Below are positions 996 to 33,189 of a DNA stretch of 64,000 bases, piece by piece. The stretch lies in the NCBI GenBank assembly GCA_964576275.1, contig CAZNUN010000008.1, positions 32,441-96,440 of the forward strand. Direction: 5' to 3'. The notes under the pieces were generated by a model. That model ran no database searches and was not told the origin of the DNA. It was given only the letters and a program-made list of their open reading frames with translations. The position numbers were made by a program, and so were the translations under genes. The first letter of the stretch is position 1. Every line of letters begins with the position of its first letter. The stretch comes from an uncultured bacterium (GTDB lineage: Bacteria > Fidelibacterota > UBA2242).

Positions 996-1901
996 ATGCA
1001 GGCTTTGGTACTAATATTATTAATAAGTTTGTTCTTTGGCGGAATAGTCATAAGAACCAAGAGCGTCTGTGCCGGCCGGAAGGGACCGGGAATATTTCAA
1101 CCGCTGAAAGACATCTGGCGGCTGATGCGCAAAGGTGCCATTTTCAGCAACACCGCGACTGTTCTGACCCGCATCGCGCCCTCGATCTACTTCGCTAGTG
1201 TATTGATTGCGGTAGCGTGTATTCCATTCGGGAATGTTAAGGGGCTGCTTTCCTTTCAGGGTGATCTCGTGTTTTTTGCGTATGCCCTGGCGCTGGGTAA
1301 GTTTTTCATGATTGTTGCGGCGCTGGACACCGGCAGCAGTTTCGAGGGGATGGGGGCCAGTCGCGAAGCTCACTTTTCAATGCTGACCGAACCGGCTTTC
1401 TTCGGAGTGATTGGCTCGCTGGCCTTATTTACCGGGCGTACTTCATTTCACGATATTTTTACCTGCTTGCATTTTGGGAATTATTTATCCTATGTATTGG
1501 GTTCGATCATACTGGTCATTTTTATTATAATAATGCTGGTCGAAAACAGCCGTATGCCGATTGACGATCCGAACACTCATCTGGAACTCACCATGATTCA
1601 TGAGGTGATGGTTTTGGATTACAGCGGATTCGACCTGGGGCTGATTCAGTACACAACCAACCTGAAGTTTGCGATGTACTCTGCTCTGATTGCCAATTTG
1701 TTCACCGGTATGCTGCCGGTCGTGCCGGAAATTCTGATATTTCTCGGAGCCGGCTTTGTATTGGCGGTAATAGTTGGCGGCGTAGAGTCGTTTACCGCCC
1801 GGTTGCGGATGGGCAGAAATCCACAGTTCATTTTTTTGCTGACCTCATGGGCATTGTTATTATTCCTGCTGGTTTTATTCATCACAGGGCGGTTCAGTTA
1901 A
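996..1901 (+). CDS. NuoH/HycD(HyfC)-like membrane subunit (complex I subunit 1 family)
   Basis: 'GPGIFQPLKDIWRLMRKG' resembles the QP(F/L)xD(x)xK loop of NuoH/HycD. About 8 TM helices. Separated by 4 nt from the previous gene. Confidence 0.6.
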   Translation: MQALVLILLISLFFGGIVIRTKSVCAGRKGPGIFQPLKDIWRLMRKGAIFSNTATVLTRIAPSIYFASVLIAVACIPFGNVKGLLSFQGDLVFFAYALALGKFFMIVAALDTGSSFEGMGASREAHFSMLTEPAFFGVIGSLALFTGRTSFHDIFTCLHFGNYLSYVLGSIILVIFIIIMLVENSRMPIDDPNTHLELTMIHEVMVLDYSGFDLGLIQYTTNLKFAMYSALIANLFTGMLPVVPEILIFLGAGFVLAVIVGGVESFTARLRMGRNPQFIFLLTSWALLLFLLVLFITGRFS

Positions 1902-2531
1902 ATGAAAGCCATTATCCTCATATTATTTGCCATTTCATTGTTGAATATTTCAATTTCGAATCGTCTGCGTGGTTTTGCCAGGATTCTCGCGTTCCAGGGT
2001 TTTTTGCTCTTTGTGCTGGCTTTTATCCAATTGCGTGAGGTTACCATTCTCAACCTGGTTTTCATCCTGCTTGAAACGCTTGTGTTCAAAACGATCGTTC
2101 TGCCGATTTTTCTGGATTACGTCATCAAGAAAAACCGGATGACACGGGAAACCGAACCTTACGTGCCATATTTCATTTCGCTATTAATTGTTTCAGCAAT
2201 TGTTCTGGCGTCCTTTATAATCGTCCAGCAAATCGAGGGACTGACCGGCAATACATTATTTTTTATCGTAGCGCTGTCCACTTTATTCACGGGATTGTAT
2301 ATCATCATTTCCCGTAAAAAACTGATCACACACATGATGGGTTATGTGGTCACGGAGAACGGGGTCTTTATTCTTTCACTGGCGATCGGGAATGAAATGC
2401 CCATGATGGTCAATACCGGTATTCTGATCGATCTGTTCATCGGCATTCTGGTAATGGGTATTTTCGTTAATAAGATCGGCGACGTGTTTCAAGAGGCCAA
2501 TAATGAATATCTCAGCCAGATAAGAGATTAA
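1902..2531 (+). CDS. Small polytopic membrane subunit, HyfE/MnhC-NuoK-like
   Basis: 209 aa and entirely hydrophobic helices. Directly abuts the flanking genes (stop/start adjacent). This position and size match hyfE in hyf/ech-type operons. Confidence 0.4.
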   Translation: MKAIILILFAISLLNISISNRLRGFARILAFQGFLLFVLAFIQLREVTILNLVFILLETLVFKTIVLPIFLDYVIKKNRMTRETEPYVPYFISLLIVSAIVLASFIIVQQIEGLTGNTLFFIVALSTLFTGLYIIISRKKLITHMMGYVVTENGVFILSLAIGNEMPMMVNTGILIDLFIGILVMGIFVNKIGDVFQEANNEYLSQIRD

Positions 2532-2532
2532 G

Positions 2533-3969
2533 ATGGTGCTTGGATTTTATTTCGGTATAGCGCTTTTAATCATTGCCGGCTTGTCCGTCAGCCGAAAAAT
2601 TAAGGGTTATATTGTTCTGCTGAGCCTGTTCAATCTCCTGCAATGGAGTCTTACGGTTTACGCTTATTTACATCTTAATTTCGAGACCGGTTTTTTCAAA
2701 GCCGATGCGCTGGCGGTTATTATGCTGATGGTGCTGAGCATCCTTTCAACGACATCTTCATATCACAGTATCTTTTATTTGCAGCATCATCACCGCTTGC
2801 ATTTCACTCCCGAACGAGCCCAGTCGATATATTACACCGGCCTCTGCCTGCTGATCATGGCGCAGACCGGCGCTTTTCTGGCCAGCCACATCGCCGTAAC
2901 CTGGATTTTCGTGGAAATCACGACCTTTGCCGCCACGGTCATGATTTACCATGAGCGCAGCGCCGAATCGATCGAAGCCGCCTGGAAATACCTGTTCGTT
3001 TGCTCGGTGGCGCTGACTTTGACATTTACCGGTATTCTGTTTCTGGGCATCGCAGCCGAAGAAGCCGGAACGGTTAATCTGTTTTACACTTCACTGGTCG
3101 CCCATGCTCCGGCTTTTAATGCATTCTGGCTGAAGATAGCCTTTCTTTTGATCCTGATCGGGTACAGCGCCAAGATGGGTATTTTCCCGATGCACACCGT
3201 CACGATTGACGCTCATACTGTCGCGCCGCCTCCGGTAAGCGCGTTTATCTCCACGACGCTGATGAATGTCGGTTTCGCAGGTATTTTCCGGATGTATGCG
3301 GTCATCGCTCCGACTTCTTCTTTTACTTGGGCCAAACATGTTCTGCTGATCGTTGGGATGTTATCTGTGTTCGTGGCGGTGGTTTATTTGGTCAGCGTCA
3401 GGCATTTCAAACGAATGTTCGCGTATTCCAGCCTGGAGAATATGGGACTGGTCGCCATCGGACTGGGAGTGGGCGGCCTGGCCTATTACGCCGCGATCCT
3501 GCATCTGATCTTGCATTCATTTACCAAAGCCAGTATGTTTTACCAGATTCAGCAGGTGCATCAGTTGTTTAGGTCTTACATCATCCGGAAAACGGGCGGC
3601 TATTTCAAGGCTTACCCGGCGGGCGCAATAGTCATGCTGTTGTGTTTTATCTGTATTGCAGGCATTCCACCGTCCGGGATGTTTATCAGTGAGTTTCTGC
3701 TGGTCGAGGCTATGTTCGCCGGCCGGATGTTCGTGATACTGGCCATTTTGCTTTTACTGCTCACATTCGCGGTCTGGGCGCTCGGGAAAAATTTCACGCA
3801 GCTGATCTTTTCCGAACCGGATCAATCGATCGAAGTCCAGTCCGAAACGCTCAATCCCGTTCACACCATTTCACAGTATGTCCTGCTGGGATTAGTGATC
3901 TATCTCGGTCTGAATCCGCCGCCGCAGATGGTCGCTCTGATTAATGCGGCTATTAACATCGTCCCATGA
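2533..3969 (+). CDS. NuoN/NuoM/HyfF-like proton-pumping antiporter subunit
   Basis: 478 aa, 14-TM-like profile. Contains 'KMGIFPMHTVTIDAHTVAPPPVSAFISTTLMNVG', the conserved broken-helix region (K...H...P) of the NuoM/N/L family. Confidence 0.6.
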   Translation: MVLGFYFGIALLIIAGLSVSRKIKGYIVLLSLFNLLQWSLTVYAYLHLNFETGFFKADALAVIMLMVLSILSTTSSYHSIFYLQHHHRLHFTPERAQSIYYTGLCLLIMAQTGAFLASHIAVTWIFVEITTFAATVMIYHERSAESIEAAWKYLFVCSVALTLTFTGILFLGIAAEEAGTVNLFYTSLVAHAPAFNAFWLKIAFLLILIGYSAKMGIFPMHTVTIDAHTVAPPPVSAFISTTLMNVGFAGIFRMYAVIAPTSSFTWAKHVLLIVGMLSVFVAVVYLVSVRHFKRMFAYSSLENMGLVAIGLGVGGLAYYAAILHLILHSFTKASMFYQIQQVHQLFRSYIIRKTGGYFKAYPAGAIVMLLCFICIAGIPPSGMFISEFLLVEAMFAGRMFVILAILLLLLTFAVWALGKNFTQLIFSEPDQSIEVQSETLNPVHTISQYVLLGLVIYLGLNPPPQMVALINAAINIVP

Positions 3970-5464
3970 TATTATGGAATTTGTAGAAATAAAAAACCAC
4001 GCCAGCATCGCTCTCTCTGCCATTCCGGTATTGGATTATGATTTTTTTCGGCGCCGGAATGTGGATTTGCTCGGCGATGAAAATAATCACTGTGTAGCTC
4101 TGTTTGGTTATCCATTCGGCAAATCTTTGCGTTTGATTTGCGGTATTGCCGACGACCGCAATGGGATAATCCGGATTTTATCAACTGTGATTAACCCGAA
4201 AGACGAATATCCGTCGCTTACGGCTCAGCGCCCGGCTTTGCATATTTTTGAGAGAGAATTGTATGAAAATTTCGGCATTCGCTACAGCGATCATCCCTGG
4301 TTGAAACCGGTCCGTTTTCCACAAAACGCACCCACAAATAAAAATATTCCCGACTACCCGTTTTACCGGATCGACAGCGAAGAACTGCACGAGGTGGGCG
4401 TCGGCCCCATTCATGCCGGAATCATCGAACCGGGACACTTTCGTTTTATCTGCAATGGAGAACAGATTCTGCACCTCGAAATTCAGCTGGGTTTCCAGCA
4501 CCGCGGAATCGAGCGCCTGTTTACGGAGAAGAAGGGTCTGCTCGAACGTGCGACCCTCGCGGAAAACATCGCCGGTGATACGGTCGTCGGGCATACGCTG
4601 GCTTTCGTAAATCTCTGGGAAAGCCTGTGCGGTTTCACGGTTGGCCGGGATTTGCAATTTGCCCGGACGCTGGCGCTCGAACTCGAACGGATTGCGATTC
4701 ATACCGGCGATCTCGCCGCCCTCTGCACCGACATCGGCTATCAGCTCGGCAATGCCGTCCTGGGGCGTTTGCGCACCCCGTTGATTAATTTCTTCCAGCA
4801 GTGGTGTGGCAACCGGCTGGCCAAAAGCCTGATTCGCGCCGGTAAAACCAATTTTTCTTTCACGACGGAACTGGCCGGAAAACTTAATGACATTCTAAGT
4901 GCTTATGAAGCCGATTTCCTGGAAATAGCCGACAAAGCCTTTCATCTGCCGACTATTCTGGCCCGCTTCGAGAAGACTGGAATTGTCACGACTCAACAGG
5001 CGGCCGCAATCGGCGCAGTGGGCATGACCGCCCGTGCCAGCGGATTAGTCCGCGATGTTCGGATTAGTCACCCGTTCGATTTGTACGGGGAACTGGGACA
5101 CCGACCGGTCGTCAAGCACCATGGGGATGTTTATTCGCGCGTCCAGGTCCGGAAGGAAGAGATCGGGCAGTCGCTCGGTTATATCCGAAAATTAATGCAG
5201 GAAATACCGGATGTTCAGCCGCTTCGAGAAATGGGTAAGCCGCAGCCGGACGCCCTGGCGATTTCCCTGACGGAGGGGTGGCGGGGCGAGATCTGCCATT
5301 GCGCCGTTACCGGTGAGGACGGCCAGCTTATTCATTACAAAATAACCGATCCCTCGTTGCACAACTGGCTGGCGCTGGCCCTGGCCGTGCGGAATAATGA
5401 GATTTCCGATTTCCCAATTTGCAATAAAAGTTTCAATCTGTCTTATTGCGGACACGATTTGTAA
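3944..5464 (+). CDS. NuoC-NuoD fusion / group-4 [NiFe]-hydrogenase large-subunit homolog (HycE/EchE-like) without the canonical L1 Ni-Fe cysteine ligands
   Basis: 'VGVGPIHAGIIEPGHFRFICNGEQILHLEIQLGFQHRGIERL' aligns with the NuoD/large-subunit N-terminus 'GPQHP...LRL...GE.V...P.IGYLHRG.EK'. At the position corresponding to L1 (RxCGxCxxxH) it reads 'IAGDTVVGHTLAF', with no Cys. The C-terminus reads 'DFPICNKSFNLSYCGHDL' instead of DPCxxCxxH. The N-terminal ~150 aa is NuoC-like. The start could instead be the M at 3974. Confidence 0.65.
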   Translation: MRLLTSSHDIMEFVEIKNHASIALSAIPVLDYDFFRRRNVDLLGDENNHCVALFGYPFGKSLRLICGIADDRNGIIRILSTVINPKDEYPSLTAQRPALHIFERELYENFGIRYSDHPWLKPVRFPQNAPTNKNIPDYPFYRIDSEELHEVGVGPIHAGIIEPGHFRFICNGEQILHLEIQLGFQHRGIERLFTEKKGLLERATLAENIAGDTVVGHTLAFVNLWESLCGFTVGRDLQFARTLALELERIAIHTGDLAALCTDIGYQLGNAVLGRLRTPLINFFQQWCGNRLAKSLIRAGKTNFSFTTELAGKLNDILSAYEADFLEIADKAFHLPTILARFEKTGIVTTQQAAAIGAVGMTARASGLVRDVRISHPFDLYGELGHRPVVKHHGDVYSRVQVRKEEIGQSLGYIRKLMQEIPDVQPLREMGKPQPDALAISLTEGWRGEICHCAVTGEDGQLIHYKITDPSLHNWLALALAVRNNEISDFPICNKSFNLSYCGHDL

Positions 5465-6231
5465 CCAGGTCGATCATGTTTAAAACACTCAGCATTTTAA
5501 TTCATCAGGGCAAACAGTACATACCGCAACCGACCGAGGCCGAAGTACCGGGAATATTCCGCGGCCGGCCGCTGATCGGCCTGGCGGACGTTGACGAATC
5601 CGCTTTGGCGGCGGTTTGCCCGGTTCAGGCCATCGGTGTCTCTCCGGTCAGCATTGATCTTGGCAAATGTACATTCTGCGGCGAATGCGCCCTGGCATTC
5701 CCGCACAAGGTCGGTTTTACCAAAGACTATAAACTGGCCACTAATGACCGTCGCCGGCTAATCATTTCAGCCGGTGACGACCAGCCGCTGCAAATCGATC
5801 CGGTATTGGTGCGGAAAGAGATTTTTAAATATTTCCGCGGCTCGCTGAAACTTAGGCAGGTTTCAGCAGGCGGCGATAATAGTTGTGAGCTGGAGCTGAA
5901 TGCCAGCGGTAACGTGAATTTCGACGTCGGGCGATACGGCATCGAGTTCGTGGCGTCGCCGCGCCATGCCGATGGTATCGTGATCACCGGCCCGATTACG
6001 AAAAATATGGCCGAGGCGCTGGAGATTTGCTACCAGGCAATTCCCGAACCGCGCATCGTTATTTTAGCCGGAACGGATGCCATCAGCGGCGGCATCTTGG
6101 CGGACAGTCCGGCGCTGGATCGCAGTTTCCTGGAGAAACATCCTGTCGATCTTTACCTGCCCGGCAATCCGGTGCATCCGCTGACTTTCCTAAACGGCGT
6201 GCTGGATCTCATCCGCACCCGTAAAACCTGA
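5446..6231 (+). CDS. NuoI-like ferredoxin domain fused to a NuoB/HycG-like small subunit, with degenerate Fe-S ligands
   Basis: N-terminal half: 'AAVCPVQAI' and 'CTFCGECALAFP', i.e. a single CP plus one CxxCxxC. C-terminal half: 'FVASPRHADGIVITGPITKNMAEAL', the NuoB signature GSPRHAD..VTG. 'GDNSCELE' stands in for CCxxE, 'AGTDAISGG' for GxCxxxGG, and 'LPGNPVHP' for PGCPP. An alternative start is the M at 5476. Confidence 0.6.
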   Translation: MRTRFVTRSIMFKTLSILIHQGKQYIPQPTEAEVPGIFRGRPLIGLADVDESALAAVCPVQAIGVSPVSIDLGKCTFCGECALAFPHKVGFTKDYKLATNDRRRLIISAGDDQPLQIDPVLVRKEIFKYFRGSLKLRQVSAGGDNSCELELNASGNVNFDVGRYGIEFVASPRHADGIVITGPITKNMAEALEICYQAIPEPRIVILAGTDAISGGILADSPALDRSFLEKHPVDLYLPGNPVHPLTFLNGVLDLIRTRKT

Positions 6232-6289
6232 CCGATCCCGTCATTTTATTCGACGAACAGCTCTAACCGTGTTCGGAACGGCCTAAAGT

Positions 6290-6480
6290 TTACGATTTGC
6301 TCGCTAATCCTCGTTATTCGTAAAGATTTCCTAGTTCGGAACTCGGTGAAGGCAGTCTGGAACTCCGATAACTTTACGTTTTACTCCGAATTCCTCGTTA
6401 TTCGAAAGGTTAGGCCCGCTTGGAACGAACCTGAGTGACTTATGATCTAATTCTGGCTCGTTCCGAAGTAACCTGAGTTC
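6290..6480. repeat. Non-coding region with short direct/inverted repeat motifs between convergent transcription units
   Basis: 'cctcgttattcg(t/a)aag' occurs twice. 'gttcggaac' / 'gttccgaa' occur several times in both orientations. 'aacctgagt' occurs twice. No ORF. Coordinates approximate. Confidence 0.3.
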
Positions 6481-6495
6481 GTTTGCAGGAAACCA

Positions 6496-6515
6496 AGACA
6501 CGGCAGGCCGTGTCT
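6496..6515. terminator. Stem-loop between convergent genes (candidate terminator; weak U-tract)
   Basis: 'agacacggc-ag-gccgtgtct' is a perfect 9-bp stem. It sits about 5 nt downstream of the stop of the minus-strand gene ending at 6521. No clean T-run follows on either strand. Coordinates +/-2. Confidence 0.3.
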
Positions 6516-6520
6516 CTACG

Positions 6521-10441: not shown

Positions 10442-11313
10442 TTAGTTGACTCCTTTGCATAAATCATACTTAAAGTTCGGTAAATGAGTTTAGCCGCCAG
10501 AAAATCGGGGGCTTTGTCGGACGGATTGGGCAATAGCTCGTTGACATCCATGCCGACGATACGCTTTTTTTGAATAACATGCGATATGACGTTGATGACG
10601 TCATACCAGCCCAGACCGCCCGGTTCGGGCGTGCCGGTCGAGGGCATAATCGCCGGATCGAAGACATCCAGGTCGACGGTCAGGTACACATTTTCCGTCA
10701 GATTGGCGCAGATTTTATCGAAGATTTCCGGTGAATTGTGATACTCGTGCGCGAAAATAACCCGCGATTTATCCAGACGCGGCAGTTCGCCGAGGTCCAT
10801 ACTGCGAATGCCGACCTGCATGATCGGACAGAATTCGCGGATGCGGGCCATGACGCAGGCATGATTGTACCGGCTGTGTTCGTACTCGTCGCGCAGGTCG
10901 GAGTGGGCGTCCAGCTGCAGAACCGACAGATTCGGAAAATGTTTGGCATGCGCCTGCGCCAGTCCGATCGAGATGGAATGTTCGCCGCCGAGGCTGACGA
11001 CGAATTTGCCGTCGTTCAGCAGCTGTGCGGTTTTAGCCGCGACGATTTGCGCCAGGTCTTCGGGTTTCTCCGGGCAGTCAACCGGCGGTAAAGTGGTGAT
11101 ACCCTGCCGGTAAACTTCCAAGCCGGTCTCGATGTCGTAGAGTTCCATGTTGGCGGAAGCAGCCAGTAAAGCCGCCGGGCCGTTGTCAGCCCCTTTTTGC
11201 CAGGTGGCGGTTCCGTCGTAAGGAATTGGCAAAATGGCTATCCGTGAAGATGGATACTGAGAATATTCCGACGCGAGCGCGCCGAAGGCTCCGGGTGAAA
11301 AGGCAGTCGGCAT
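10438..11313 (-). CDS. speB: Agmatinase / arginase-family ureohydrolase
   Basis: Arginase-fold Mn-binding motifs: 'GGEHSISIG', 'DAHSDLRDE' and 'SVDLDVFDPAIMPSTGTPEPGG'. Confidence 0.7.
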   Translation of the reverse strand: MPTAFSPGAFGALASEYSQYPSSRIAILPIPYDGTATWQKGADNGPAALLAASANMELYDIETGLEVYRQGITTLPPVDCPEKPEDLAQIVAAKTAQLLNDGKFVVSLGGEHSISIGLAQAHAKHFPNLSVLQLDAHSDLRDEYEHSRYNHACVMARIREFCPIMQVGIRSMDLGELPRLDKSRVIFAHEYHNSPEIFDKICANLTENVYLTVDLDVFDPAIMPSTGTPEPGGLGWYDVINVISHVIQKKRIVGMDVNELLPNPSDKAPDFLAAKLIYRTLSMIYAKESTK

Positions 11314-11328
11314 TTTTTTTATGTCAGA

Positions 11329-11718
11329 CTAAGGGTGTTGCGGGAAATCTTCGCCACGCTCTCTAAGATACCATTTGGGAGACTGGCTTTTAAAATATTC
11401 TATGATAAGATCCCGCGCCATATCCACGTCGAATGCCCGACAGGAGAAAAGGTCAACAAATGCAAATTTTTTACTGGGATATGTATGCACGGAAATGTGA
11501 CTTTCGGCAATGATCACGACGCCTGTAATACCTTCGTCGCCGGGGAAGCGTCCTTCGTACCGGAATACATAAGGCTGGGTAATTTTGGTCATGCCGATTT
11601 TGGGGGGGAGTTCGTTTAAAAGTTTGAAGCAAGCTTCGAGACTGTCTAAAACCGCTGGTTCACAGTCATTTAAATCCAGCATTAAGTGGGGTCCATAGCC
11701 ATACTTTGTTTCTGCCAT
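11329..11718 (-). CDS. speH: S-adenosylmethionine decarboxylase proenzyme, class 1b (pyruvoyl-dependent, SpeH/SpeD type)
   Basis: 'GVVIIAESHISVHTYPSKKFAFVDLFSCRAF' contains the ES(H) self-cleavage site of the small AdoMetDC family. The track ORF extends to 11820; the start was trimmed to ATG 11718 (MAETKYG), with 'GGAGGG' 11 nt upstream. Confidence 0.6.
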   Translation of the reverse strand: MAETKYGYGPHLMLDLNDCEPAVLDSLEACFKLLNELPPKIGMTKITQPYVFRYEGRFPGDEGITGVVIIAESHISVHTYPSKKFAFVDLFSCRAFDVDMARDLIIEYFKSQSPKWYLRERGEDFPQHP

Positions 11719-11919
11719 TTCGCATAAACCCTCCATTAATGAGTTAATCACGACACACAGTTCAAACCGATATGAGGCATCGTTTTGAAATCTGTAAAAA
11801 AACGCGCTATTATACGTCATTTTTTTTATTTTTCAAACAAAAATTATTCAGAGAAAACAAGATGATTTTCCGACGGGAGGCGAGGAGAAGCCAATGTTAA
11901 AGTTGCTAAAATATTTTTA

Positions 11920-19699: not shown

Positions 19700-22162
19700 T
19701 TACCTCGCCAACACCATCTTTTTTACCTGAACATAATCGCCGGCAGTTAATTTGTAGAAGTAAATCCCGCTGGCGACGTTGTTGCCATGCGAGTCTCGGC
19801 CGTTCCAGATCAGGTGATAACGACCGGTTGGCTGGTGATTGTCCGCGAGAGTCGCAATTTTTTGTCCGAGTAGATTGTAAATCTCGAGCCTGACGTGGGA
19901 ATTCTGTGGCAATTCAAACTCAATGGTCGTCAGCGGATTGAAGGGATTGGGAAAATTCTGTCTGACTTGAAAAGTTTTAGGTTTTTGAGAATCATCAGGT
20001 TTCTCGATGATCTGAAATTCGCCATGATAGAGATTATCCGGTGAATTTTCCATAAAAAACGGCTGACTGGCCTTCATGTCCATTATCCCATCATACCATT
20101 GCGGCAGAGTCGGCGGCGTTTCACATGCTAACATCTCACGCCAGGCTTCGTCGGTCAGACGATTGGCGATTGGCTGAATGAATTCATAATATGAGAAGAT
20201 CGCCCCGCGCGTTAGGCGAAGCGTACCGCCTTCATTGATGATGACATTGATTTCCAGAGGATAACCGACGCCTTCCTCCAGACACTGATCCGAATTGGAG
20301 TCGGTATGCACATCGGCGACGACCGCCATGTCATCGCTGTCATAGTGCCAGGGATCCTCACCTTCGGAGACCAATTTTTGCATGACTTTGCCAAAGCAAT
20401 AAATGTTGGAGTATTCCTCATCTGTAAGTGGTGTATTCTCCAGTTCCTTGATCGAAACATCCCGTAAGAAAAGCAGGAGAGATTCAAAAAGCACAAGTTT
20501 ATCTTGAAATTTTTCAGTTAATATGTCCCTTGTAAGCAGTCCGTCCATTGTATAGCGCGTCAGGCTTGCCAGCCGGGCGTAAAGATGCGGATTAGGTTCC
20601 ACGTAACTTTTCGGCGGTCCGGGAGTGATACAGCAGGGCGTCATGCTTTGCTTGGCGTAGAGAATCGTATCGTGCCGTAATTCCGCCCAGGAAGCCAGAG
20701 CTGTCAGGAGTTCTTTGTCCATCCAGGCGATAGTCTGCATGAAAAACGGGTAGCCTTCGCCTTTTTCATATAGTAATGGCATCAGGCAATAGAGCCAGTT
20801 CCAGTATAAATTTTGTGCCCATTCGGCAGGTGAAATAGACGCGAATTCGGTCTTGAATTCGGTAATTTTTTCAGGATAATTCGGACAGGCTGTCTCGTTA
20901 TAAAGCGAATCCAGCAAATCGTAAGCCCGATCCGAGCCGAGAATCGTCATTATATCCAATCCTTTGGGGAAAAGACGCTGACCGACTTCAGGGTCGATAA
21001 GATGCGCGAACATATATGAATCGGGAATGAAACGCTGACCCATCAGCCTGAATCCTTTGTAGGTAGTAAAAGAGCCGTAAATCCAGTTCGGTATTTTCGA
21101 TTCCGGCAATTTTTGAGCTTCCGTCATAAAGGCGTCAAGCAAAGCCGAATTGGCAAGGCTATCGGCGGTAAGCGATAGAAAATTGGTACCGTAAATCTGT
21201 TCGGCGATAGATTTATAATCTGTAATATTGGGATCATCGGTTTTGCCGACGAAAAAGACAGTGGGTTCATAGATCATTTTCCATAAATCCAACAGAGAAG
21301 TCCCATCTGCTTCCAGATTATAGAGCATTTGAGTAAGCAACAGCGCCTGGAGGGTGTGTCTCCTCGCCAAGTCACCGAAATTTTCCGGCTCCATGGTGAA
21401 AATCGTCCAGCCTTGCCACATCATGGCTTTGAAGTAAGCCGTCAGCGTGTCATTCGTGGTGTAATGTCCGCGCGGGATGAATTGACAATAATCCAGTAAA
21501 TTGAATGGACCTAAGATGGGCGGAGTGTTAAATCCGTCATGATTGGCGATTAAAGTCAATTCCGAATCCACAAGCGCCGCAACCGGTTCTGGAACGATAA
21601 AATCATTGCCTTTCAATAATTTCTGCGATACGCACAGAAATGCTAGATTGCGCCGTAACGTCTCTTTAATTTCCGGTTCGGTTGCTGTATCATATTGCGG
21701 TTGGGTGGCGTCAATCAAAGTCTGGATTAAAAGTTCCAGAGCCGGTACGAATTTTTGAATTTCGATTTCGGCCAGAATCTTATCATAAAGAACATGATAA
21801 ATGTGCAGAACCGCGTCGGTAGTTACAAAAAGCGGCGTGCCTTCCCAGGTGCAGTCGTTGTAAATATCATATAACTGCTTGAACTGACTTCTCCGGACCG
21901 TGAAGTGGTTTTGAAGTAATAGCGCTGAGTCCACCGCACTGAATCCATAGAAGTAAGAAAAATTTTCAACGTTACTGAAATCGGGTTCGACGGTAAAAAG
22001 CGGTACGTTGGGAGTAAAATCGGCAGGATATGGCTGGTAAGTTCCAAAGTCGGTTTGAACATCTTCGGAAATGTTGGCAATCATCTGGAACTGAGCCTGC
22101 AACCCGGAAAAACAAAGAGCGAAGCATAGAACGAGTTTGAAAAATTCGTTAAAACGCTTCAT
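19700..22162 (-). CDS. Large secreted protein with a C-terminal T9SS sorting domain (CTD/Por_Secre_tail); last gene of the long minus-strand array
   Basis: The C-terminus 'FPNPFNPLTTIEFELPQNSHVRLEIYNLLGQKIATL...SGIYFYKLTAGDYVQVKKMVLAR' is a canonical T9SS CTD. The track ORF starts at 22201; the start was trimmed to ATG 22162 (MKRFNEF), with 'AAGGAGG' 7 nt upstream. Signal peptide follows. The ~700-aa body has no family I can name. Confidence 0.6.
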   Translation of the reverse strand: MKRFNEFFKLVLCFALCFSGLQAQFQMIANISEDVQTDFGTYQPYPADFTPNVPLFTVEPDFSNVENFSYFYGFSAVDSALLLQNHFTVRRSQFKQLYDIYNDCTWEGTPLFVTTDAVLHIYHVLYDKILAEIEIQKFVPALELLIQTLIDATQPQYDTATEPEIKETLRRNLAFLCVSQKLLKGNDFIVPEPVAALVDSELTLIANHDGFNTPPILGPFNLLDYCQFIPRGHYTTNDTLTAYFKAMMWQGWTIFTMEPENFGDLARRHTLQALLLTQMLYNLEADGTSLLDLWKMIYEPTVFFVGKTDDPNITDYKSIAEQIYGTNFLSLTADSLANSALLDAFMTEAQKLPESKIPNWIYGSFTTYKGFRLMGQRFIPDSYMFAHLIDPEVGQRLFPKGLDIMTILGSDRAYDLLDSLYNETACPNYPEKITEFKTEFASISPAEWAQNLYWNWLYCLMPLLYEKGEGYPFFMQTIAWMDKELLTALASWAELRHDTILYAKQSMTPCCITPGPPKSYVEPNPHLYARLASLTRYTMDGLLTRDILTEKFQDKLVLFESLLLFLRDVSIKELENTPLTDEEYSNIYCFGKVMQKLVSEGEDPWHYDSDDMAVVADVHTDSNSDQCLEEGVGYPLEINVIINEGGTLRLTRGAIFSYYEFIQPIANRLTDEAWREMLACETPPTLPQWYDGIMDMKASQPFFMENSPDNLYHGEFQIIEKPDDSQKPKTFQVRQNFPNPFNPLTTIEFELPQNSHVRLEIYNLLGQKIATLADNHQPTGRYHLIWNGRDSHGNNVASGIYFYKLTAGDYVQVKKMVLAR

Positions 22163-22219
22163 TTTTCGCCTCCTTTTTGTCCAATTAAAATTTATAGGCA
22201 AATTTATTAATAATCAACA

Positions 22220-24007
22220 TTACCAATTCATCTCGAAACCCAGCGTCCAGCCGTTGGTATTCATGATATCACCATTCGATCGGATGAACAATTTGGCGCC
22301 GGACGGATGTTCGTAAATCATGCCGAAGCGAACGGTGTTCGTGCGGGTAAAAGTTTTCGGCGGATTAGAATCGTATTTTTCGTAGCGATTGGTTTCCGGG
22401 TCATCAACGGTTAAAACCCCATTTACCCAATAACGATCGACAATGTTGGGATAGAGCAGATCGCCATGACTGTTATCCTCGACCAGACTGAGACTTATAT
22501 CGGTGCCGAGTAAGGCAAAGAAGCCCTTAGCCAGATGAGCTTTTACGCCGATTGGCACCATGAGATTCCAGGCATTGGTTTCAGTTGAATAGGAATATTG
22601 TTTAGTGTATGTGTCGAGGTATCGGTATGTCCCGGCGCTGTAAAGTGAATATTCCGTGAACGAATTGGAGTAATAATCCGAACTTTCCTCGAAATCGGCC
22701 TGCGACCATTGCCGGGAAATCTGTAATCCTCCGAACAGCGTCCAGTCATTTTCCAGCGCGTAGATCAATGAAGTCAGAAATTTCCACTGGCTGATCGTCT
22801 CGTCACCGGAACCTTCCAGGTTGAATTCAGCGGCGCTGTTTTCGGTGCAACGCCGGAATTCGTAGGTATTAGTGGCAATCCAGTAGTCATAAGTCCGGTC
22901 GCTGAAAGTGGTATCGTCAGTAGCGTATCGGGTGGTGATATCCTGATTTTTACTCGAAAAAGAAAAGAAGGAGCGCAAAATGAGATTTGAATTCATTTTT
23001 TTCTCGAATGTCAGCGTCAGGTATGGCTTCACTCCGGAAGTTTTATACATGTAATTGCTGTTCATAGTGTGTTCGCTGATGTTGTAGTAAGCCGTATTGG
23101 TCGCCGTTTCCGAGAACGAATCCGAAGTGTCCTGTGAAATTTCGGATTCCTTGCCGGAACCGAAAAACACTCCGGCGAAGAAACCGTAAGTCGTTTTATC
23201 GTCGGGATGGTTTAGAATCCCGGCGCCCAGGTCAAAATGCCGGCCGTTGATTTTCATATCTTCGTCGTTCAGAATTCCATAAGACGAATGTGGATAGGTC
23301 GCCCATTGCGAATTGTACAGATAGCCGTCGCGGTGAAAAATATAATGGCCGATGTGGAAACCGAGGTCGGTTTTTTCAGACAACCGGTAGCCGAGAGTGA
23401 ATTCGGATTGATTGGCGAGGACGATCTGTTGGTTTTCCTCCGTTTCGAGACGTTGCGGTTCAAGTTCAGCATAAGAGGCGTAGGAATTGGTAGCGATTGC
23501 ATCTTCCATCCAGCCACCGCTTCTCCACCAGGTTGAATTCCGGTAAGGACCATAGTCGAAGACTGAACGGTTGACAATCCCCAGACCCATGCGTTTATTC
23601 AATGGCAGAATCAGAGCCAGATTGTAAAGCGGCGCGATATTGATGTCCTGAACGCTGGTCTGACTGTACCACGATGGCGAAAGATAATAACTGTCTGTCA
23701 GAATCCCGGACGACAGCGGATTGAGCGAGGACGTGACACTGCTTTCCAGATTGAAGTCAATGTAAACAGTCTTCTGTTTTTCGCGCAGTATATAGGCCGG
23801 ATTCCAGTTCAGATCGCTGAACTTGTCCGGAACCATGCCACTGACTTCCGGCGCGAAAATCGCCATCTGCATAGTGCGGAATCCGATCGGTTCCATCAGA
23901 TAAGGAACTGAAGGTTGGCGCGTGACCGGATCGGGAACTGTTGCCAAAGCAATTCCGGTTAGCAGAATCAGAATAATCATCAAATCATATATTTTTTCAT
24001 TTTTCAT
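22220..24007 (-). CDS. Hypothetical outer-membrane beta-barrel-like protein
   Basis: Start trimmed to ATG 24007 (MKNEKIYDL), with 'AAAGGAG' 6 nt upstream. Signal/anchor peptide. Long run of alternating strands. C-terminus 'GWTLGFEMNW'. Confidence 0.4.
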   Translation of the reverse strand: MKNEKIYDLMIILILLTGIALATVPDPVTRQPSVPYLMEPIGFRTMQMAIFAPEVSGMVPDKFSDLNWNPAYILREKQKTVYIDFNLESSVTSSLNPLSSGILTDSYYLSPSWYSQTSVQDINIAPLYNLALILPLNKRMGLGIVNRSVFDYGPYRNSTWWRSGGWMEDAIATNSYASYAELEPQRLETEENQQIVLANQSEFTLGYRLSEKTDLGFHIGHYIFHRDGYLYNSQWATYPHSSYGILNDEDMKINGRHFDLGAGILNHPDDKTTYGFFAGVFFGSGKESEISQDTSDSFSETATNTAYYNISEHTMNSNYMYKTSGVKPYLTLTFEKKMNSNLILRSFFSFSSKNQDITTRYATDDTTFSDRTYDYWIATNTYEFRRCTENSAAEFNLEGSGDETISQWKFLTSLIYALENDWTLFGGLQISRQWSQADFEESSDYYSNSFTEYSLYSAGTYRYLDTYTKQYSYSTETNAWNLMVPIGVKAHLAKGFFALLGTDISLSLVEDNSHGDLLYPNIVDRYWVNGVLTVDDPETNRYEKYDSNPPKTFTRTNTVRFGMIYEHPSGAKLFIRSNGDIMNTNGWTLGFEMNW

Positions 24008-24017
24008 ATTTGCTCCT

Positions 24018-25274
24018 TTATGCAACTGGATTCATGATTTTTCCGATGAACAGGATCGTGCCGGAAGCCCGCTCGCGGATCGCCAAAATAAAGGGACGAT
24101 CAACGCGCATTACCGTAATATCTTCCGTGTCAGCCGAGACCGATTTGTATGTAACCTCGACGGATGCCGCCGCGGCGGCTTCGGTGCCTTCTTCGTCAAC
24201 TTCAATAAACGATTTATGTCTGACTTCGCTGATATACAATTCATCGCCATCTTGATTGATACGGCTGAAATCAGCCTGATCGTTAAATGCGATTCCCATA
24301 CCGAGTTCTGTCAGCGGATCATTTAGCACCCGGAACCACTCGAGTTTGAATCTCGGCAAATAAAGACTGACGTTTGTCGTGGATAAGTCTGCGCTCAGAT
24401 TATTCCATTTTTCATCGGTCAAGCCGCTTATCAACGAGTCTAAATCGTCGCTGGATCCCGGCAGGAGTACCGTCATGGCAAAAAATCCATCGTTATACGG
24501 CAGGTCGATTATCTGAAGTTCGTCAGTCTCAGCATAGTCGAAGTCACTACGGAGCGACATCATCTGGCAGTTCACTGTTTCGTCATTATTAAGATAAAAC
24601 GGAGCCTCCTTTGTGTGTTCTTCATTGAACTGATAGGTCCAGGTGCCCTTGAAATAAATGGCGTTGAGCAGAAACATAACCGTGTTGGGATTGATCGGTT
24701 TCCCAATGAGTTGTTTAATGAGTCCTTCGGTTTGTTCTGATATCCAGGCATTCATTGTATCAACGGCGGCGTCCTGATTGAAATCAAGTCCCCGAACAAC
24801 TGCATCGAAATACGTCTGGTTCGTTGCGATAAATGCCGGCAAGACCGAGAATTCGTTCCGGTACCAAATCGAGTTTGCGATCCGGAATTTGACTTGCGCA
24901 TCAAGCGACCTCAGTAAATTGATCAGGCTTTGATATGATTGGTTGATTTCATCTTCGATAAGATTTTCGAAACGAAGCGTTGAATGTATTGCCTCAAGAG
25001 TAGTGCCCGCCGCGCCGTTCGCGGTCATTCCTAAAGCCATCGAAACCGAAACTGGTGATATAAACAGATTGCTATCGCCGACCTCTTCCGATAATACTTT
25101 GAACAGATCGAATCCGAATGAGTTACTCGATTCGATCAGAGACTGTTCGGATTTGCTAAGGTTTCTTGGTAATTGTGGAATACCATCGGAGATCGGCCCC
25201 GTGACGTCCGAACAGCTTGTTATCAATGTCATTAATATGAATGACAGGTATATATTTCGTGAGGATTTTTCCAT
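24018..25274 (-). CDS. Serpin (serine-protease inhibitor) lipoprotein, paralog 1
   Basis: Hinge and shutter motifs: 'FIEVDEEGTEAAAAASVEV...MRVDRPFILAIRERASGTILFIGKIMNPVA'. Lipobox 'LITSC'. The track start is a TTG; the start was trimmed to ATG 25274 (MEKSS), with 'AAGGAG' 6 nt upstream. Confidence 0.8.
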   Translation of the reverse strand: MEKSSRNIYLSFILMTLITSCSDVTGPISDGIPQLPRNLSKSEQSLIESSNSFGFDLFKVLSEEVGDSNLFISPVSVSMALGMTANGAAGTTLEAIHSTLRFENLIEDEINQSYQSLINLLRSLDAQVKFRIANSIWYRNEFSVLPAFIATNQTYFDAVVRGLDFNQDAAVDTMNAWISEQTEGLIKQLIGKPINPNTVMFLLNAIYFKGTWTYQFNEEHTKEAPFYLNNDETVNCQMMSLRSDFDYAETDELQIIDLPYNDGFFAMTVLLPGSSDDLDSLISGLTDEKWNNLSADLSTTNVSLYLPRFKLEWFRVLNDPLTELGMGIAFNDQADFSRINQDGDELYISEVRHKSFIEVDEEGTEAAAAASVEVTYKSVSADTEDITVMRVDRPFILAIRERASGTILFIGKIMNPVA

Positions 25275-25287
25275 CTTTTTCTCCTTT

Positions 25288-26529
25288 TTACTCAGCAACT
25301 GGATTCATGATTTTTCCGATGAACAGGATCGTGCCGGTATTTTTCTCACGTAGAAAAAAGATAAACGGCCGATCGACAATAAAGTAAACTTCCTCTGTAC
25401 CAATGGATGTTATTTCAAAAGATATAGACGTTACGGCGGCGGCCTCAGTACCTTCTTCATTGACATCCACGAAAGTCTTATGTTTTATGTTACTGATAAA
25501 TAGATCGTAATCCGGATTGATTTTATCGAAATTCGCTTCGGATGGTGAAAAGGCTTTTTGCATACCCAGCGCTTTTAATGTTGGGATCAAACCGATATTA
25601 TATTCGACTTTAAATTTCGGTAAGAAAATATTGACTTCGGTTTCGGTCAGACCGTTTATCCAATCCATCCAATTGCCAGCAGTCATTGCTGCCGCAACAG
25701 AATCGACATCCACTCCGGAGTTTGGTAGAATGACAGTCATACTGAAGCCGATTTCACAGTAAGTCAGGTCGGCGATCTGGATCTGGTCATTCGCAAAATA
25801 ACCATGAGTGGCTTTATGCCTCATCATTTCACAATTTGTCTGACTGCCGTCTTTCCGGTAGAATGACGTTTCCTGGGTGTTTTCATCATCGAACTCATAC
25901 GTCCAGGTGCCTTTGAAGTAAATGGCATTGATCAGGAACATGACAGTATAAGGATCAATCGGCGGATCGACGATCGTTGGGATTTTCTCATGAGTTTTTT
26001 CGTTTACCCAGGCATTGATTACGTCAGCCGCGTCACTGCGATTGAAGTCCAACTCCTGAACCTCAGCGTCGAAATAAGTGGTATTGATTACTAAGAAATC
26101 ATTCAATACCGAAAATCCGCTGCGATACCAGATAGAGTTGGCGATCTCGAAAGTGACATCCGGGTCGGCGGTCGCAAGCAGATCAATCAGACTCTGATAG
26201 GACTGATTGATTTCCTCGGCAGTCAGATCGCCATATTCCAGCATGGAGTGCATTTCACTGCGGGTCTCGCCGTCCGCGCCGTTATAAGCCATACCGAGTG
26301 CCATCGAAACACTCAGTGGCGAAATGAAGATATTTTTATCGGTCTCGGAGGAAACGATTTGCCGGAATAACTTCAGACCGAAATTATTATCGGCTTCCGT
26401 CACCTTCTTTTCTATGGCGCTCAGCTCGCGGATCGGCTCTGGTTTATCACCGCCGGTGATTTTCTCAGGACAGCGGCTCAAAAAAAGAAGTGGAAGCACT
26501 GTCAGAACAATAATTTTTCTGTTTGTCAT
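25288..26529 (-). CDS. Serpin (serine-protease inhibitor), paralog 2
   Basis: 'FVDVNEEGTEAAAVTSISFEI...FIVDRPFIFFLREKNTGTILFIGKIMNPVAE'. Same C-terminus as paralog 1. Start trimmed to ATG 26529 (MTNRKIIVLTVLPLLFLSRC), with 'GAGG' 5 nt upstream. Confidence 0.8.
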   Translation of the reverse strand: MTNRKIIVLTVLPLLFLSRCPEKITGGDKPEPIRELSAIEKKVTEADNNFGLKLFRQIVSSETDKNIFISPLSVSMALGMAYNGADGETRSEMHSMLEYGDLTAEEINQSYQSLIDLLATADPDVTFEIANSIWYRSGFSVLNDFLVINTTYFDAEVQELDFNRSDAADVINAWVNEKTHEKIPTIVDPPIDPYTVMFLINAIYFKGTWTYEFDDENTQETSFYRKDGSQTNCEMMRHKATHGYFANDQIQIADLTYCEIGFSMTVILPNSGVDVDSVAAAMTAGNWMDWINGLTETEVNIFLPKFKVEYNIGLIPTLKALGMQKAFSPSEANFDKINPDYDLFISNIKHKTFVDVNEEGTEAAAVTSISFEITSIGTEEVYFIVDRPFIFFLREKNTGTILFIGKIMNPVAE

Positions 26530-26681
26530 AGAAACCTCATCATTTATTTCCGCAATACTTAAAAACGACAATTCATCTATGACAAATAGCATTCCAAAAT
26601 CTTCCGACGGAGAAAACCTGTCCGGGATAGACAAACTCTCAGATTTCTGAGACTAACGCCGAAAAATTGAGAGAAGCTGAA

Positions 26682-31533: not shown

Positions 31534-33189
31534 TTAAATATTAGGATTGTCTCCACACACCTGCCTGAAAATACGCAGAAAATTACCTCCCATGATCTTG
31601 GCGATTTCTTCCTCAGTATAGCCTTCATTCAGCAAAGCGCCGGTCAATCTCGGAAAATAGGATACATCCTGTAGATCACCCGGCCAGACTTCGATCCCGT
31701 CAAAATCCGAACCGATGCCGACATAATCAACGCCAACCAGGTTAACGATATAATTGATATGGTTGATGACGTCATTCAGAGAGGCATTGCTTGAACCGTT
31801 TAAAAAGTAAGGGTAGAAGCAGGCGCCGATCAATCCTCCTCCGGCGGCAATTGCCCGTATCTGATCGTCGCTCAAATTGCGGTAATGGTTACAGAGCGCC
31901 CGGGCATTTGAATGGGACGCTATGATCGGATTTTTGGAGGTTGCCAGGATATCGGAAATGGTCTGGATGCCGACATGTGAGACGTCAATTATCATGCCGA
32001 GTGAGTCCATCGCGGCTATTACTTTCCGTCCGAAGGCATTCAAGCCACCGGCGCGGGTTCCGCGGGCTTCATCTTTGGCGGAAACAGCCCAGGACGTGCT
32101 GTTATTCCAGGTGATGGTCATGCCGCGCACGCCCAGATCGTAGAAATATTTTAATTTATCGACATCGTTTTCAATATAATGACCACCTTCCAGGAAGATT
32201 ATTCCGGCGATTCGATCATCATTTACCGCACTGTCCAGGGCGGTATAATTTCTGATATGTTGAATTGTTTCTGGATTGGCAGTAAACTCGGCGGTAAGGC
32301 GGTTATATTGATTGATGGCCGTCTGATAAGCGCCGTTTGAAGCGCTGTCCCAGATGGCGAAAACCTGGATGTCCAATCCGCCATCCTGGAGGCGGGGAAT
32401 ATCGGTATGTAAATATGAATGACGGTCTGCAAGGTGATAATTGGCATAGGCAGATTTAGCCATTTGCTCGGAAATATCGTTGTGCATGTCGGCAACGCGG
32501 ACATAGGAATGCACAGATTGCAGAAAGGTTGTAAAATAGGTATGCTCGGAAGTCGTAATCAGCGTATCGGAATGGTAGCCGAATTTCGAGCTGACGATCC
32601 GCAGATCGGAGACGTTCGGTTTGGATAAGAACCGGGCTTGGTCGTCGGTTGGGCTGATATCGCCTAACCCGCCGGTTAGACTGCCGTCCAGTTGGATCAT
32701 TTTACGCGTGATTTGTTTTTGACCGGTTCGAATAGTATAAAAGTAAACTCCAGCGCTTCCTTGGCTTTTCCAGGTTGTCGAATAAGAACCTGCGGGGAGA
32801 TATTTGTGACAGCGATCGATTGTCTGACCCAGCAGATTGGTGACCGTGATCTCAATCGCGCCGTCACTTGGTAAATAAAAGGGCAGATTTGTCACCGGAT
32901 TAAATGGATTGGGGTAATTCTGCAGAACGCGGAATTCATCCGGCAAGTTAAACTCGTCACTTTTCATCTTGTTTGGAAAGGACAGGCTCCAGTCGCCATT
33001 GCCGTCGGTAAAGGTTGAATCGCAGGAGCCCGATTCGGTATCGCAGATCGTGATCCGAACGTTGCGAATGGGAGCATCGGTGTGGAAATCGGAAACCCGG
33101 CCGCCATAGGTTGCCGACCAGGCGGATAAAGCCGGGATGGCAATCAAGGCGCCCTGTAAAATTCGTCGGATTATATTTTGACCGGTCAT
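31534..33189 (-). CDS. Membrane dipeptidase (peptidase M19, renal-dipeptidase family) with an internal, N-terminally placed T9SS-CTD-like/FlgD-Ig domain
   Basis: M19: 'VADMHNDISEQ', 'GLDIQVFAIW', 'GIIFLEGGHYIEN', 'VSHVGIQTI', 'ASHSNARALCNHYRNLSDDQIR' and 'GIGSDFDGI'. Upstream of it (aa ~85-170): 'LQNYPNPFNPVTNLPFYLPSDGAIEITVTNLLGQTI...GVYFYTIRTGQKQITRKMIQL', which is CTD-like but not C-terminal. Signal peptide. Confidence 0.7.
   Translation of the reverse strand: MTGQNIIRRILQGALIAIPALSAWSATYGGRVSDFHTDAPIRNVRITICDTESGSCDSTFTDGNGDWSLSFPNKMKSDEFNLPDEFRVLQNYPNPFNPVTNLPFYLPSDGAIEITVTNLLGQTIDRCHKYLPAGSYSTTWKSQGSAGVYFYTIRTGQKQITRKMIQLDGSLTGGLGDISPTDDQARFLSKPNVSDLRIVSSKFGYHSDTLITTSEHTYFTTFLQSVHSYVRVADMHNDISEQMAKSAYANYHLADRHSYLHTDIPRLQDGGLDIQVFAIWDSASNGAYQTAINQYNRLTAEFTANPETIQHIRNYTALDSAVNDDRIAGIIFLEGGHYIENDVDKLKYFYDLGVRGMTITWNNSTSWAVSAKDEARGTRAGGLNAFGRKVIAAMDSLGMIIDVSHVGIQTISDILATSKNPIIASHSNARALCNHYRNLSDDQIRAIAAGGGLIGACFYPYFLNGSSNASLNDVINHINYIVNLVGVDYVGIGSDFDGIEVWPGDLQDVSYFPRLTGALLNEGYTEEEIAKIMGGNFLRIFRQVCGDNPNI

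Follow-up and report, generated by a model that had tools for sequence, protein, structure and literature searches.

A fused Ehr small subunit that retains ligands for one [4Fe-4S] cluster and has lost most of its N2 site

A six-gene operon at the beginning of a 64,000-nucleotide stretch of DNA from an uncultured bacterium (GTDB lineage Bacteria; Fidelibacterota; UBA2242; GenBank assembly GCA_964576275.1, contig CAZNUN010000008.1, positions 32,441 to 96,440 of the forward strand; the whole stretch is called the window below) ends in a gene encoding a NuoI/HycF-like domain fused to a NuoB/HycG-like domain. The product is the small, EhrS-type subunit of a six-subunit Ehr (“energy-converting hydrogenase-related”) complex. 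It retains the ligands of one [4Fe-4S] cluster in its ferredoxin-like half, together with a single one of the four cysteines that bind the proximal (N2) cluster in solved relatives, and comparison across the family supports the loss of N2 as a secondary and recurrent event in at least three or four Ehr lineages. Taking identity and mechanism jointly, we consider it on balance probable that this is an Ehr small subunit working in an ion-translocating complex that has no electron relay to its large subunit; the mechanism by itself is less certain than this joint reading.

The initial annotation placed the gene at 5446..6231 on the forward strand. The open reading frame (ORF) is real but its start is not: 5446 is where the longest ORF has its first TTG, inside the upstream gene, whose stop lies at 5464. 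The Met of ATG 5476 is the start in 120 of 120 homologues, and gene callers use ATG 5476 on contigs with identical sequence, giving a 251-aa product. The protein is therefore 251 aa long, and its residues are numbered here from that Met. All of the motifs on which the annotation had been built (AAVCPVQAI, CTFCGECALAFP, NSCELE, SPRHADGIVITG, AGTDAISGG, and LPGNPVHP) are present in the forward-strand translation, the reading frame is intact, and the identical protein is found on 10 independent contigs.

The protein was described initially as a fused NuoI-NuoB subunit, and profile searches agree. PF01058 (Oxidored_q6) scores 73.3 bits (cut-off 27) over residues 146-254 of the 261-aa ORF, and the N-terminal half resembles NuoI and HycF: the segment VSIDLGKCTFCGECALAFPHKVGFTKDYKLATNDRRRL aligns with the second Cys motif and the characteristic tail of NdhI/NuoI (E 1.6e-5), a family profile finds HycF over its residues 23-109 (E 2.6e-5), and likeness extends beyond the cysteines to an RFRG motif and to T.eY.l.T..R after motif 2. 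Matches of the N-terminal half to TIGR01971 and NF009053 fall short of their cut-offs, and Pfam ferredoxin matches are only subthreshold (residues 56-94 of the 261-aa ORF). The two CxxCxxCxxxCP motifs of NuoI and HycF, with eight cysteines for two clusters, are not complete in the small subunit. Exactly four cluster cysteines are found in its N-terminal half, C48, C65, C68, and C71, so that four of the eight ferredoxin cysteines are gone. In motif 1, C48-P49 is the last Cys-Pro and the other three Cys positions are D38, E41, and L44; in motif 2, C65, C68, and C71 are the first three cysteines and the fourth position is F75. The last Cys-Pro of motif 1 and the first three cysteines of motif 2 ligate one cluster in the 2x[4Fe-4S] ferredoxin fold, and the invariance of these four residues, in the pattern Cys-Pro then CxxCxxC, confirms the earlier count of one ferredoxin cluster. 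The AlphaFold2 (AF2) model of the protein (pLDDT 72) has, besides a NuoB fold, a ferredoxin-like unit of order beta-alpha-beta-beta-alpha-beta that is modelled confidently (pLDDT 75-89 for residues 31-80). With phmmer, query residues 59-96 map onto residues 92-130 of Thermus Nqo9, whose N6b ligands we take to be C63, C98, C101, and C104. Together with the ligand pattern, this suggests that the retained cluster is of the N6b type, the normal neighbor of N2.

For the NuoB half, the closest solved relative in both sequence and fold is Pyrococcus furiosus MbhJ (6CFW; E 1e-22), which is also the top Foldseek match of the model (6cfw_J; probability 1.00, TM score 0.78 on target). The best score against an NCBIfam NuoB model is 83.5 bits (NF005012, cut-off 116), and scores against all equivalogs are far under their cut-offs. 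Residue-by-residue HMMER alignments were made to solved structures including MbhJ, HycG (7Z0S), and NDUFS7. In these, DNSC lies opposite CNGC of both MbhJ and HycG, GTDAISGG opposite GACPTGG (MbhJ) and GACGNSGG (HycG), and PGNPVHP opposite PGCPP, whereas the tandem CC of NDUFS7 is aligned with S136-C137. D134, C137, D201, and N231 thus occupy the four proximal/N2 ligand positions and one ligand of four is left, C137, the same number as originally reported; an arrangement with four Cys at the N2 positions, which the initial annotation named as contrary evidence, was not seen in the structure alignments. AF2 confidence is low exactly in the two loops of the former cluster site. Other cysteines were considered as substitute ligands and rejected. 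C185 is invariant, but its place, judging from fold topology, is the distant end of the helix preceding strand 4, at the opposite sheet edge from the cluster site; C144 is Ser in the query protein; and in the large subunit C493 and C502 each alternate with Ser and Ala independently of the other, which does not fit obligatory ligands.

The substitutions are shared by close relatives. A word-indexed search found about 8000 homologues, the best 120 of which are 250-255 aa long and at least 69% identical to the query. Among these 120, C48, C65, C68, and C71 are conserved without exception, as are D134 and D201; N231 is conserved in 119 and C137 in 113 (otherwise Asn or Ser), and position 75 is Phe or Tyr in 118. 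Across 81 genome loci, nearly all from Bacteroidota, D134 is encoded by GAT in 44 and GAC in 37, N231 by AAT in 41 and AAC in 40, and D201 by GAT in 69 and GAC in 11, and the four cluster cysteines are kept in 81 of 81 loci, where both Cys codons are used. Two base changes are required to turn Cys into Asp, and likewise into Asn. Conservation in 120 homologues and codon turnover in 81 genomes exclude a sequencing error as the source of the C>D/N changes, an explanation that the initial annotation had left standing. A pseudogene in decay, or an artefact of assembly or sequencing, found no support and has a negligible probability given the intact frame, the 10 independent contigs, the roughly 8000 homologues, and the synonymous turnover.

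The adjacent large subunit settles what kind of complex this is. Its best solved relatives are HycE (E 7e-37) and MbhL (E 1e-35), but CGIC of HycE is replaced by AGDT and DPCYSC by NLSYCG, no NiFe ligand is left, and the absence of the L1 and L2 NiFe Cys motifs is conserved in 75 large-subunit homologues. The protein accordingly lacks the group 4 [NiFe]-hydrogenase pair RxCGxCxxxH and DPCxxCxxH/R. A complex like this, in which a Ni-Fe site to be wired is absent, falls within the Ehr class, which had been named before: an electron path to a Ni-Fe site would be interrupted, as the initial annotation proposed, but no Ni-Fe site is present at its end. The remaining hallmarks of Ehr are found as well. 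The operon encodes two antiporter-like subunits (HyfB and HyfF), a NuoH-like and a HyfE-like subunit, PF00329 and PF00346 are fused in one ORF, and the ferredoxin-like domain and PF01058 in another. Large-subunit residues are numbered here on the 506-aa ORF starting at 3944; the start is likely ATG 3974, giving 496 aa. The subunit retains the beta1-beta2 loop, D212, an RGEICHC motif (C451, H452, C453), and the C-terminal motif. RGEICHC is invariant in 73-75 of 75 large subunits from Bacteroidota loci but missing as a motif in other Ehr clades, and C451 and C453 are absent from Ehr clades retaining four N2 cysteines; AGD(T/S) and the C-terminal DFPxCNKSFNLSYCGHDL are common to all Ehr clades examined, with N2 kept or lost. 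Judged by sequence, the three motifs together form an Ehr-specific signature in the former NiFe pocket.

Ehr complexes have been described from Geobacter sulfurreducens (EhrA-D, L, and S; GSU0739-0745), Mycobacterium tuberculosis (Rv0082-87), and Methylacidiphilum (“ehrABCDLS”), and further hosts in the literature are Sulfobacillus, Nitrospira, and Margulisbacteria. Their function is stated there to be unknown, with pH homeostasis suggested as a possibility. A paper citing Marreiros 2013 describes NuoC-NuoD and NuoI-NuoB fusions in Ehr complexes from several phyla. The complex and its fused architecture were thus known already, and the query operon resembles those of Geobacter, M. tuberculosis, and Methylacidiphilum in gene set, NiFe-less large subunit, and both fusions. 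What differs is the small subunit. An Ehr relative with two HyfB-like genes (locus L089) has all four N2 cysteines and both ferredoxin motifs, and relative to such an Ehr the query lacks three of four proximal-cluster cysteines and four of eight ferredoxin cysteines. The accessible Ehr literature reports only the missing NiFe cysteines; loss of the N2 cluster was not found in it, though Marreiros 2013 might mention it. As far as that literature shows, a conserved and repeated loss of the last cluster, in which carboxylates take the place of cysteines, has not been described.

Other members of the superfamily differ further. HycG and HycF of the E. coli formate hydrogenlyase (FHL; 7Z0S), which are among the best solved relatives of the two query halves (E 1.5e-19 for HycG; E 2.6e-5 for HycF with the family profile), and HyfI and HyfH of hydrogenase 4 share fold, SPRHAD motif, and operon partners with the query, but FHL has two separate proteins, three clusters (F1, F2, and G1), and a NiFe site where the query has one polypeptide, one cluster, and no such site. 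NuoB/PSST and NuoI/TYKY of complex I (with N6a and N6b) are homologous to the query halves, which share FRG and T.eY.l.T..R..L with them, yet the query has no tandem CC, N2, N6a, or quinone-type large subunit, its scores against NCBIfam NuoB and NuoI models are far under the cut-offs, and the operon has six genes only, none of them NuoA- or NuoJ-like by Pfam. Mrp antiporters share with the query the antiporter-like PF00361 subunits, with transmembrane helix (TM) 5 Glu, TM7 Lys, and TM12 Lys, and a NuoK-like Glu; they lack NuoB-, NuoD-, NuoH-, and NuoI-like subunits, and since the query operon encodes homologues of all four it is not an Mrp operon, and Mrp can serve as a functional analogue only.

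To place the loss of N2 within the fused family, we made an exhaustive HMMER search of 50%-identity representatives, which gave 4018 matches (1340 at E <=1e-10), and took a cluster census of the 70 well-covered representatives among the 150 best matches. All four N2 cysteines are present in 38 of the 70 (19 with two ferredoxin clusters and 11 with one), about 20 have none or one, and the remainder resemble frameshifted assemblies. Clean sequences almost without exception retain the C48/C65/C68/C71 cluster, down to about 40% identity, and N2-less sequences exist with one or with two ferredoxin clusters. Ancestral fused subunits bear a proximal/N2 cluster in the NuoB half and two further [4Fe-4S] clusters in the NuoI half, three in all, of which the query clade, mainly Bacteroidota, keeps one. 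Loci of six distant representatives each contain the same six genes; L089 has its additional HyfB-like gene like the Geobacter gene list. The large subunits of all six are without NiFe cysteines, whether or not four N2 cysteines stand beside them, which makes the whole fused family Ehr and the loss of N2 a later step.

In a neighbor-joining tree without bootstrap support, N2-less sequences fall at no fewer than three or four places. The four N2 positions read D, C/T/N, D, N/H in the query clade; D, S, S, D in P0216, which adjoins a CCCC sequence and keeps two ferredoxin clusters; E, C, E, D in P0197; D, I, D, D in P0167; and D, V, D, S in P0215. Wherever the first N2 motif remains, Asp or Glu stands in place of its first Cys, a replacement that takes two or three base changes. 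A different operon order in one N2-less locus (L087) and the differing ferredoxin states argue that these losses were independent. In a further clade (P0159, P0169, P0170, P0176, P0191, P0203, P0212, and P0225; fused proteins of 228-274 aa), the first N2 motif is deleted altogether, the third-ligand position is Q, K, E, T, or A, and the fourth is D, N, Q, R, E, or A, while the single ferredoxin cluster and F75 are kept; this is an even more reduced version of the small subunit.

The six Ehr genes recur in 63-78 of 84 loci when all ORFs are clustered, and this clustering yielded no conserved neighbor beyond them: no formate dehydrogenase, no NuoEFG, and no hyp. No hyp (NiFe maturation) genes were called within the 20-kb loci. 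A scan with one genome per species confirmed at least 404 loci, and the best 80 of these are almost all from Bacteroidota, with one labelled Marinimicrobia; hosts among the best 80 include Niastella vici, Chryseolinea serpens, Lutibacter, Gillisia, Mucilaginibacter, Paludibacter, Saprospiraceae, Chitinophagaceae, and Bacteroidales. Niastella, Chryseolinea, and Mucilaginibacter are aerobes. An RB-TnSeq paper on Bacteroidota makes no mention of these genes.

The membrane arm is intact and under selection. Its conservation was assessed over 63-91 genomes, nearly all Bacteroidota (91 HyfB, 67 HyfF, and 63 NuoH-like sequences). The HyfB-like subunit has invariant TM5 Glu, TM7 Lys, TM8 Lys, and TM12 Lys columns, the helices being labelled by motif similarity to the HyfF/MbhH alignment rather than by direct structural alignment. 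Aligned to MbhH, the HyfF-like subunit differs at TM8, where Lys is replaced by Asn, and agrees in TM5 Glu, TM7 Lys, and TM12 Lys, a pattern conserved in the 67 sequences. The NuoH-like loop ENSRMPIDDPNTHLELTMIHEVMVLDYSG is nearly invariant, and the glutamate of TENG in HyfE is invariant.

In the FHL relay F1-F2-G1-NiFe, every hop is shorter than 14 Å, and the proximal cluster is the oxygen-labile one. Removal of the G1/N2 position would open a two-hop gap from the retained cluster to the large-subunit pocket, across which the classical relay could not operate. With four ferredoxin cysteines kept and one N2 cysteine of four left by alignment, the predicted single Fe-S centre without an N2/proximal cluster stands, and its incompatibility with the normal electron path holds as an inference from cluster spacing in solved relatives. 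We propose that the electron relay into the large-subunit pocket would be abolished and that the N2 pocket may be occupied by Asp134, Asp201, and Asn231, plus a dispensable Cys137. By analogy with the lost N7 site of mitochondrial complex I (NDUFS1), where Cys228, Cys231, Cys235, and Cys263 have become Asp, Asp, Ser, and Ser and waters lie in the site, the Asp/Asp/Asn set would fill the cavity and supply the negative charge of the lost [Fe4S4(Cys)4]. The precedent for the Asp/Asp/Asn replacement is a direct one, with the difference that N7 is off-pathway and its loss leaves the relay whole, whereas the cluster lost from the query is the terminal one. The complex would still translocate ions, since purifying selection acts strongly on every canonical Lys and Glu of the membrane arm and on the coupling loop of NuoH. 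Its most likely role would be that of an Mrp-like, gradient-driven cation/proton exchanger or a pH-homeostasis device, in which the hydrophilic cap would be a structural lid or gate and the single cluster might stabilize the NuoI domain or serve as a sensor of redox state or O2. Doing without the oxygen-labile proximal cluster would suit the aerobic hosts.

Several points weigh against an ion machine without a relay. Our literature search found no experiment on any Ehr complex, so that the ion-exchange role is read only from the parts kept and lost. The cap is highly conserved, with 81% mean column identity in the small subunit and with D212, RGEICHC, and the C-terminal NKSFNLSY.GHD invariant in the large subunit; this seems to exceed the needs of a passive lid and hints at a ligand or catalytic site. 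Invariance of the four cysteines at about 40% identity would fit a working redox centre too. The broken wire is argued from spacing in relatives, not from distances in the query complex, and the probable identity of the retained cluster depends on the Nqo9 ligand assignment taken above, not on coordinates. A wider generalization is tentative, a possibility that we rate as somewhat doubtful: that Ehr complexes of the query type are complex-I-like ion machines without electron transfer into the large subunit, in which the terminal cluster has been converted several times into a carboxylate pocket that mimics the cluster charge or binds a cation, the driver or gate being either an ion gradient, as in Mrp, or the remaining cluster acting as a redox or O2 switch.

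The most serious alternative keeps the chemistry. The single [4Fe-4S] cluster, fed by ferredoxin or flavodoxin, might reduce a substrate (a quinone, a sulfur compound, or another) in or near the vacated N2 pocket, at the interface of the small, large, and NuoH-like subunits, so that electrons would make one hop instead of two and the complex would be a redox-driven pump. The family-wide invariance of the four cysteines, down to about 40% identity, speaks for it, as does the strong conservation of the NuoH loop and of the former active-site region of the large subunit; moreover, many relatives run a two-cluster chain of one ferredoxin cluster and N2, which means that an N6b-type cluster can serve as an entry point, and in MBS the proximal cluster region itself is reported to be a catalytic site. 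We nevertheless think a redox-driven pump rather unlikely. No conserved partner or substrate-related gene adjoins the operon in the 84 loci, N2 was lost repeatedly without a visible compensating ligand, and the pocket is Asp/Asp/Asn rather than hydrophobic. The quinone Tyr region of complex I is carried by NuoD, and at this region the query large subunit has AGDT, with no Gly-to-Tyr or other quinone-type signature.

Two further explanations refill the N2 site instead of bypassing it. Asp134, Cys137, Asp201, and Asn231 might bind a metal or another cation (Fe, Mn, Mg, Ca, or Na) at a newly formed site, or they might ligate an unusual Fe-S cluster; the site would then either stand in for N2 in charge switching or repair the wire. 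Asp is known to ligate metals and Fe-S clusters, D134, D201, and N231 are conserved like the Cys ligands with synonymous codon turnover, independent lineages converge on Asp or Glu at position 1, and position 3 is mostly Asp or Glu (Ser in P0216, Lys in P0249). Even so, the sole thiolate, C137, is replaced by Thr, Asn, or Ser in close relatives, position 4 differs among lineages (N, H, D, or S), the sister clade lacks the first motif, its position 3 being Q, K, E, T, or A, and Asp/Asp/Ser/Ser at the lost N7 site holds only water; with AF2 confidence low exactly in these loops, such a site seems to us distinctly improbable. Still less credible, to the point of being very improbable, are N2 ligands donated in trans by the large subunit, for example C451 and C453 of RGEICHC, with the cluster still at the interface. 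The near-universal presence of both cysteines in Bacteroidota large subunits and their absence where four N2 cysteines are kept would fit this, but just one of these cysteines occurs in the related DTDN clade (L085) and neither occurs in the N2-less L086 and L087, and in known hydrogenases the motif adjoins the canopy Arg of the NiFe pocket and not the proximal cluster.

Features of the operon and of the small-subunit gene are listed in Table 1. The HyfB-like gene begins upstream of the window and encodes 671 aa in identical contigs (full gene L001 3502-5517).

Table 1. Coordinates of the Ehr operon and of sites within the small-subunit gene (positions in the window)
Feature	Position	Strand	Remarks
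HyfB/NuoL-like antiporter-type subunit, C-terminal 326 aa	12..992	+	PF00361, NF005086 “hydrogenase 4 subunit B”
NuoH/HyfC/HycD-like membrane subunit, links two arms	996..1901	+	PF00146, E 5.9e-36
HyfE-like membrane subunit, NuoK-like C-terminal part	1902..2531	+	NF008556 “hydrogenase 4 membrane subunit”, E 1.5e-17, below cut-off
HyfF/NuoN-like antiporter-type subunit	2533..3969	+	PF00361, hydrogenase 4 subunit F models
Large subunit, NuoC-NuoD/HycE-like fusion without NiFe ligands (EhrL type)	3974..5464	+	PF00346, PF00329
Small subunit, NuoI/HycF-like domain fused to NuoB/HycG-like domain	5476..6231	+	251 aa plus stop
NuoI/HycF-like half, aa 1-110, ligands for one [4Fe-4S] cluster	5476..5805	+	FRGRP motif, NdhI/HycF matches
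Cluster-ligand codons C48 (5617-5619), C65 (5668-5670), C68 (5677-5679), C71 (5686-5688)	5617..5688	+	
F75, in place of the fourth Cys of motif 2	5698-5700	+	
NuoB/HycG/MbhJ-like half, aa 118-251	5827..6228	+	PF01058, MbhJ E 1e-22, Foldseek 6cfw_J
D134-N-S-C137, replacing CxxC (hydrogenase) or CC (complex I) proximal/N2 ligands	5875..5886	+	
D201, third cluster Cys replaced (GxCxxxGG to GTDAISGG)	6076..6078	+	
N231, fourth cluster Cys replaced (PGCPP to PGNPV)	6166..6168	+	

The small-subunit gene is the last of six co-directional, tightly packed genes, and a convergent GyrI-like gene lies 3′ of the operon. The intergenic region downstream (6232-6520) contains several TTCGGAAC-like half-palindromes between 6270 and 6470 and a perfect 8-bp hairpin, GACACGGC/GCCGTGTC, at 6497-6516 between the operon and the GyrI-like gene. 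This hairpin went unflagged by a simple terminator scan, and searches for Rfam families, tRNAs, promoters, and terminators returned nothing relevant. Directly upstream of the operon in the source organism (L001/L002 1-3362, outside the window) is an ars-like cluster encoding an ArsP permease, a low-molecular-weight phosphatase-type arsenate reductase, two thioredoxins, a DsbD_TM protein, and an SBF/Acr3-like transporter. In L085, a distant N2-less locus of the DTDN type, two chromate-transporter-family genes (10762-11837) follow the small-subunit gene with overlapping or abutting stops and starts. Both sets were considered as partners of Ehr and set aside as lineage-specific, the ars-like genes not being conserved in other genomes.

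Elsewhere in the window, two tandem bacterial serpin genes lie on the reverse strand at 24018-25298 and 25288-26634 (PF00079, E 1e-115 and 1e-118), near a 601-aa ORF without a Pfam match (22220-24025) and a gene for a DUF3160 protein with a type IX secretion system (T9SS) sorting tail (19700-22201). Por_Secre_tail (T9SS sorting) matches were found in this last ORF and in the one at 31534-33189. A 1635-aa Peptidase_C25 (gingipain-like) protein with CARDB and FlgD_ig domains is encoded at 58556-63463 on the forward strand, and TonB-type receptors with CarboxypepD_reg domains at 42773-45043 and 46339-48642. Along with the T9SS sorting tails, these genes indicate a host of the Bacteroidota/FCB group.

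Complexes of the complex I superfamily are thought to be driven by chemistry that ends an Fe-S wire at the NuoB/NuoD/NuoH junction. In the Ehr complexes considered here, a very common set with thousands of sequences, the catalytic metal and the last cluster of the wire have been lost, yet pump residues and coupling loops remain under strong selection. If they are still redox enzymes, a new site must be in use; if they are gradient-driven exchangers, they would show a redox pump reverting to an Mrp-like transporter with its cap retained. Niastella, Chryseolinea, Lutibacter, and Mucilaginibacter are genera with cultured members, and the presence of the operon in such genera opens the role of Ehr to testing. 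Should it be true that no electrons are delivered to the large subunit, such Ehr complexes would amount to an “N2-less” experiment made by nature on the coupling of the two arms in the complex I superfamily.

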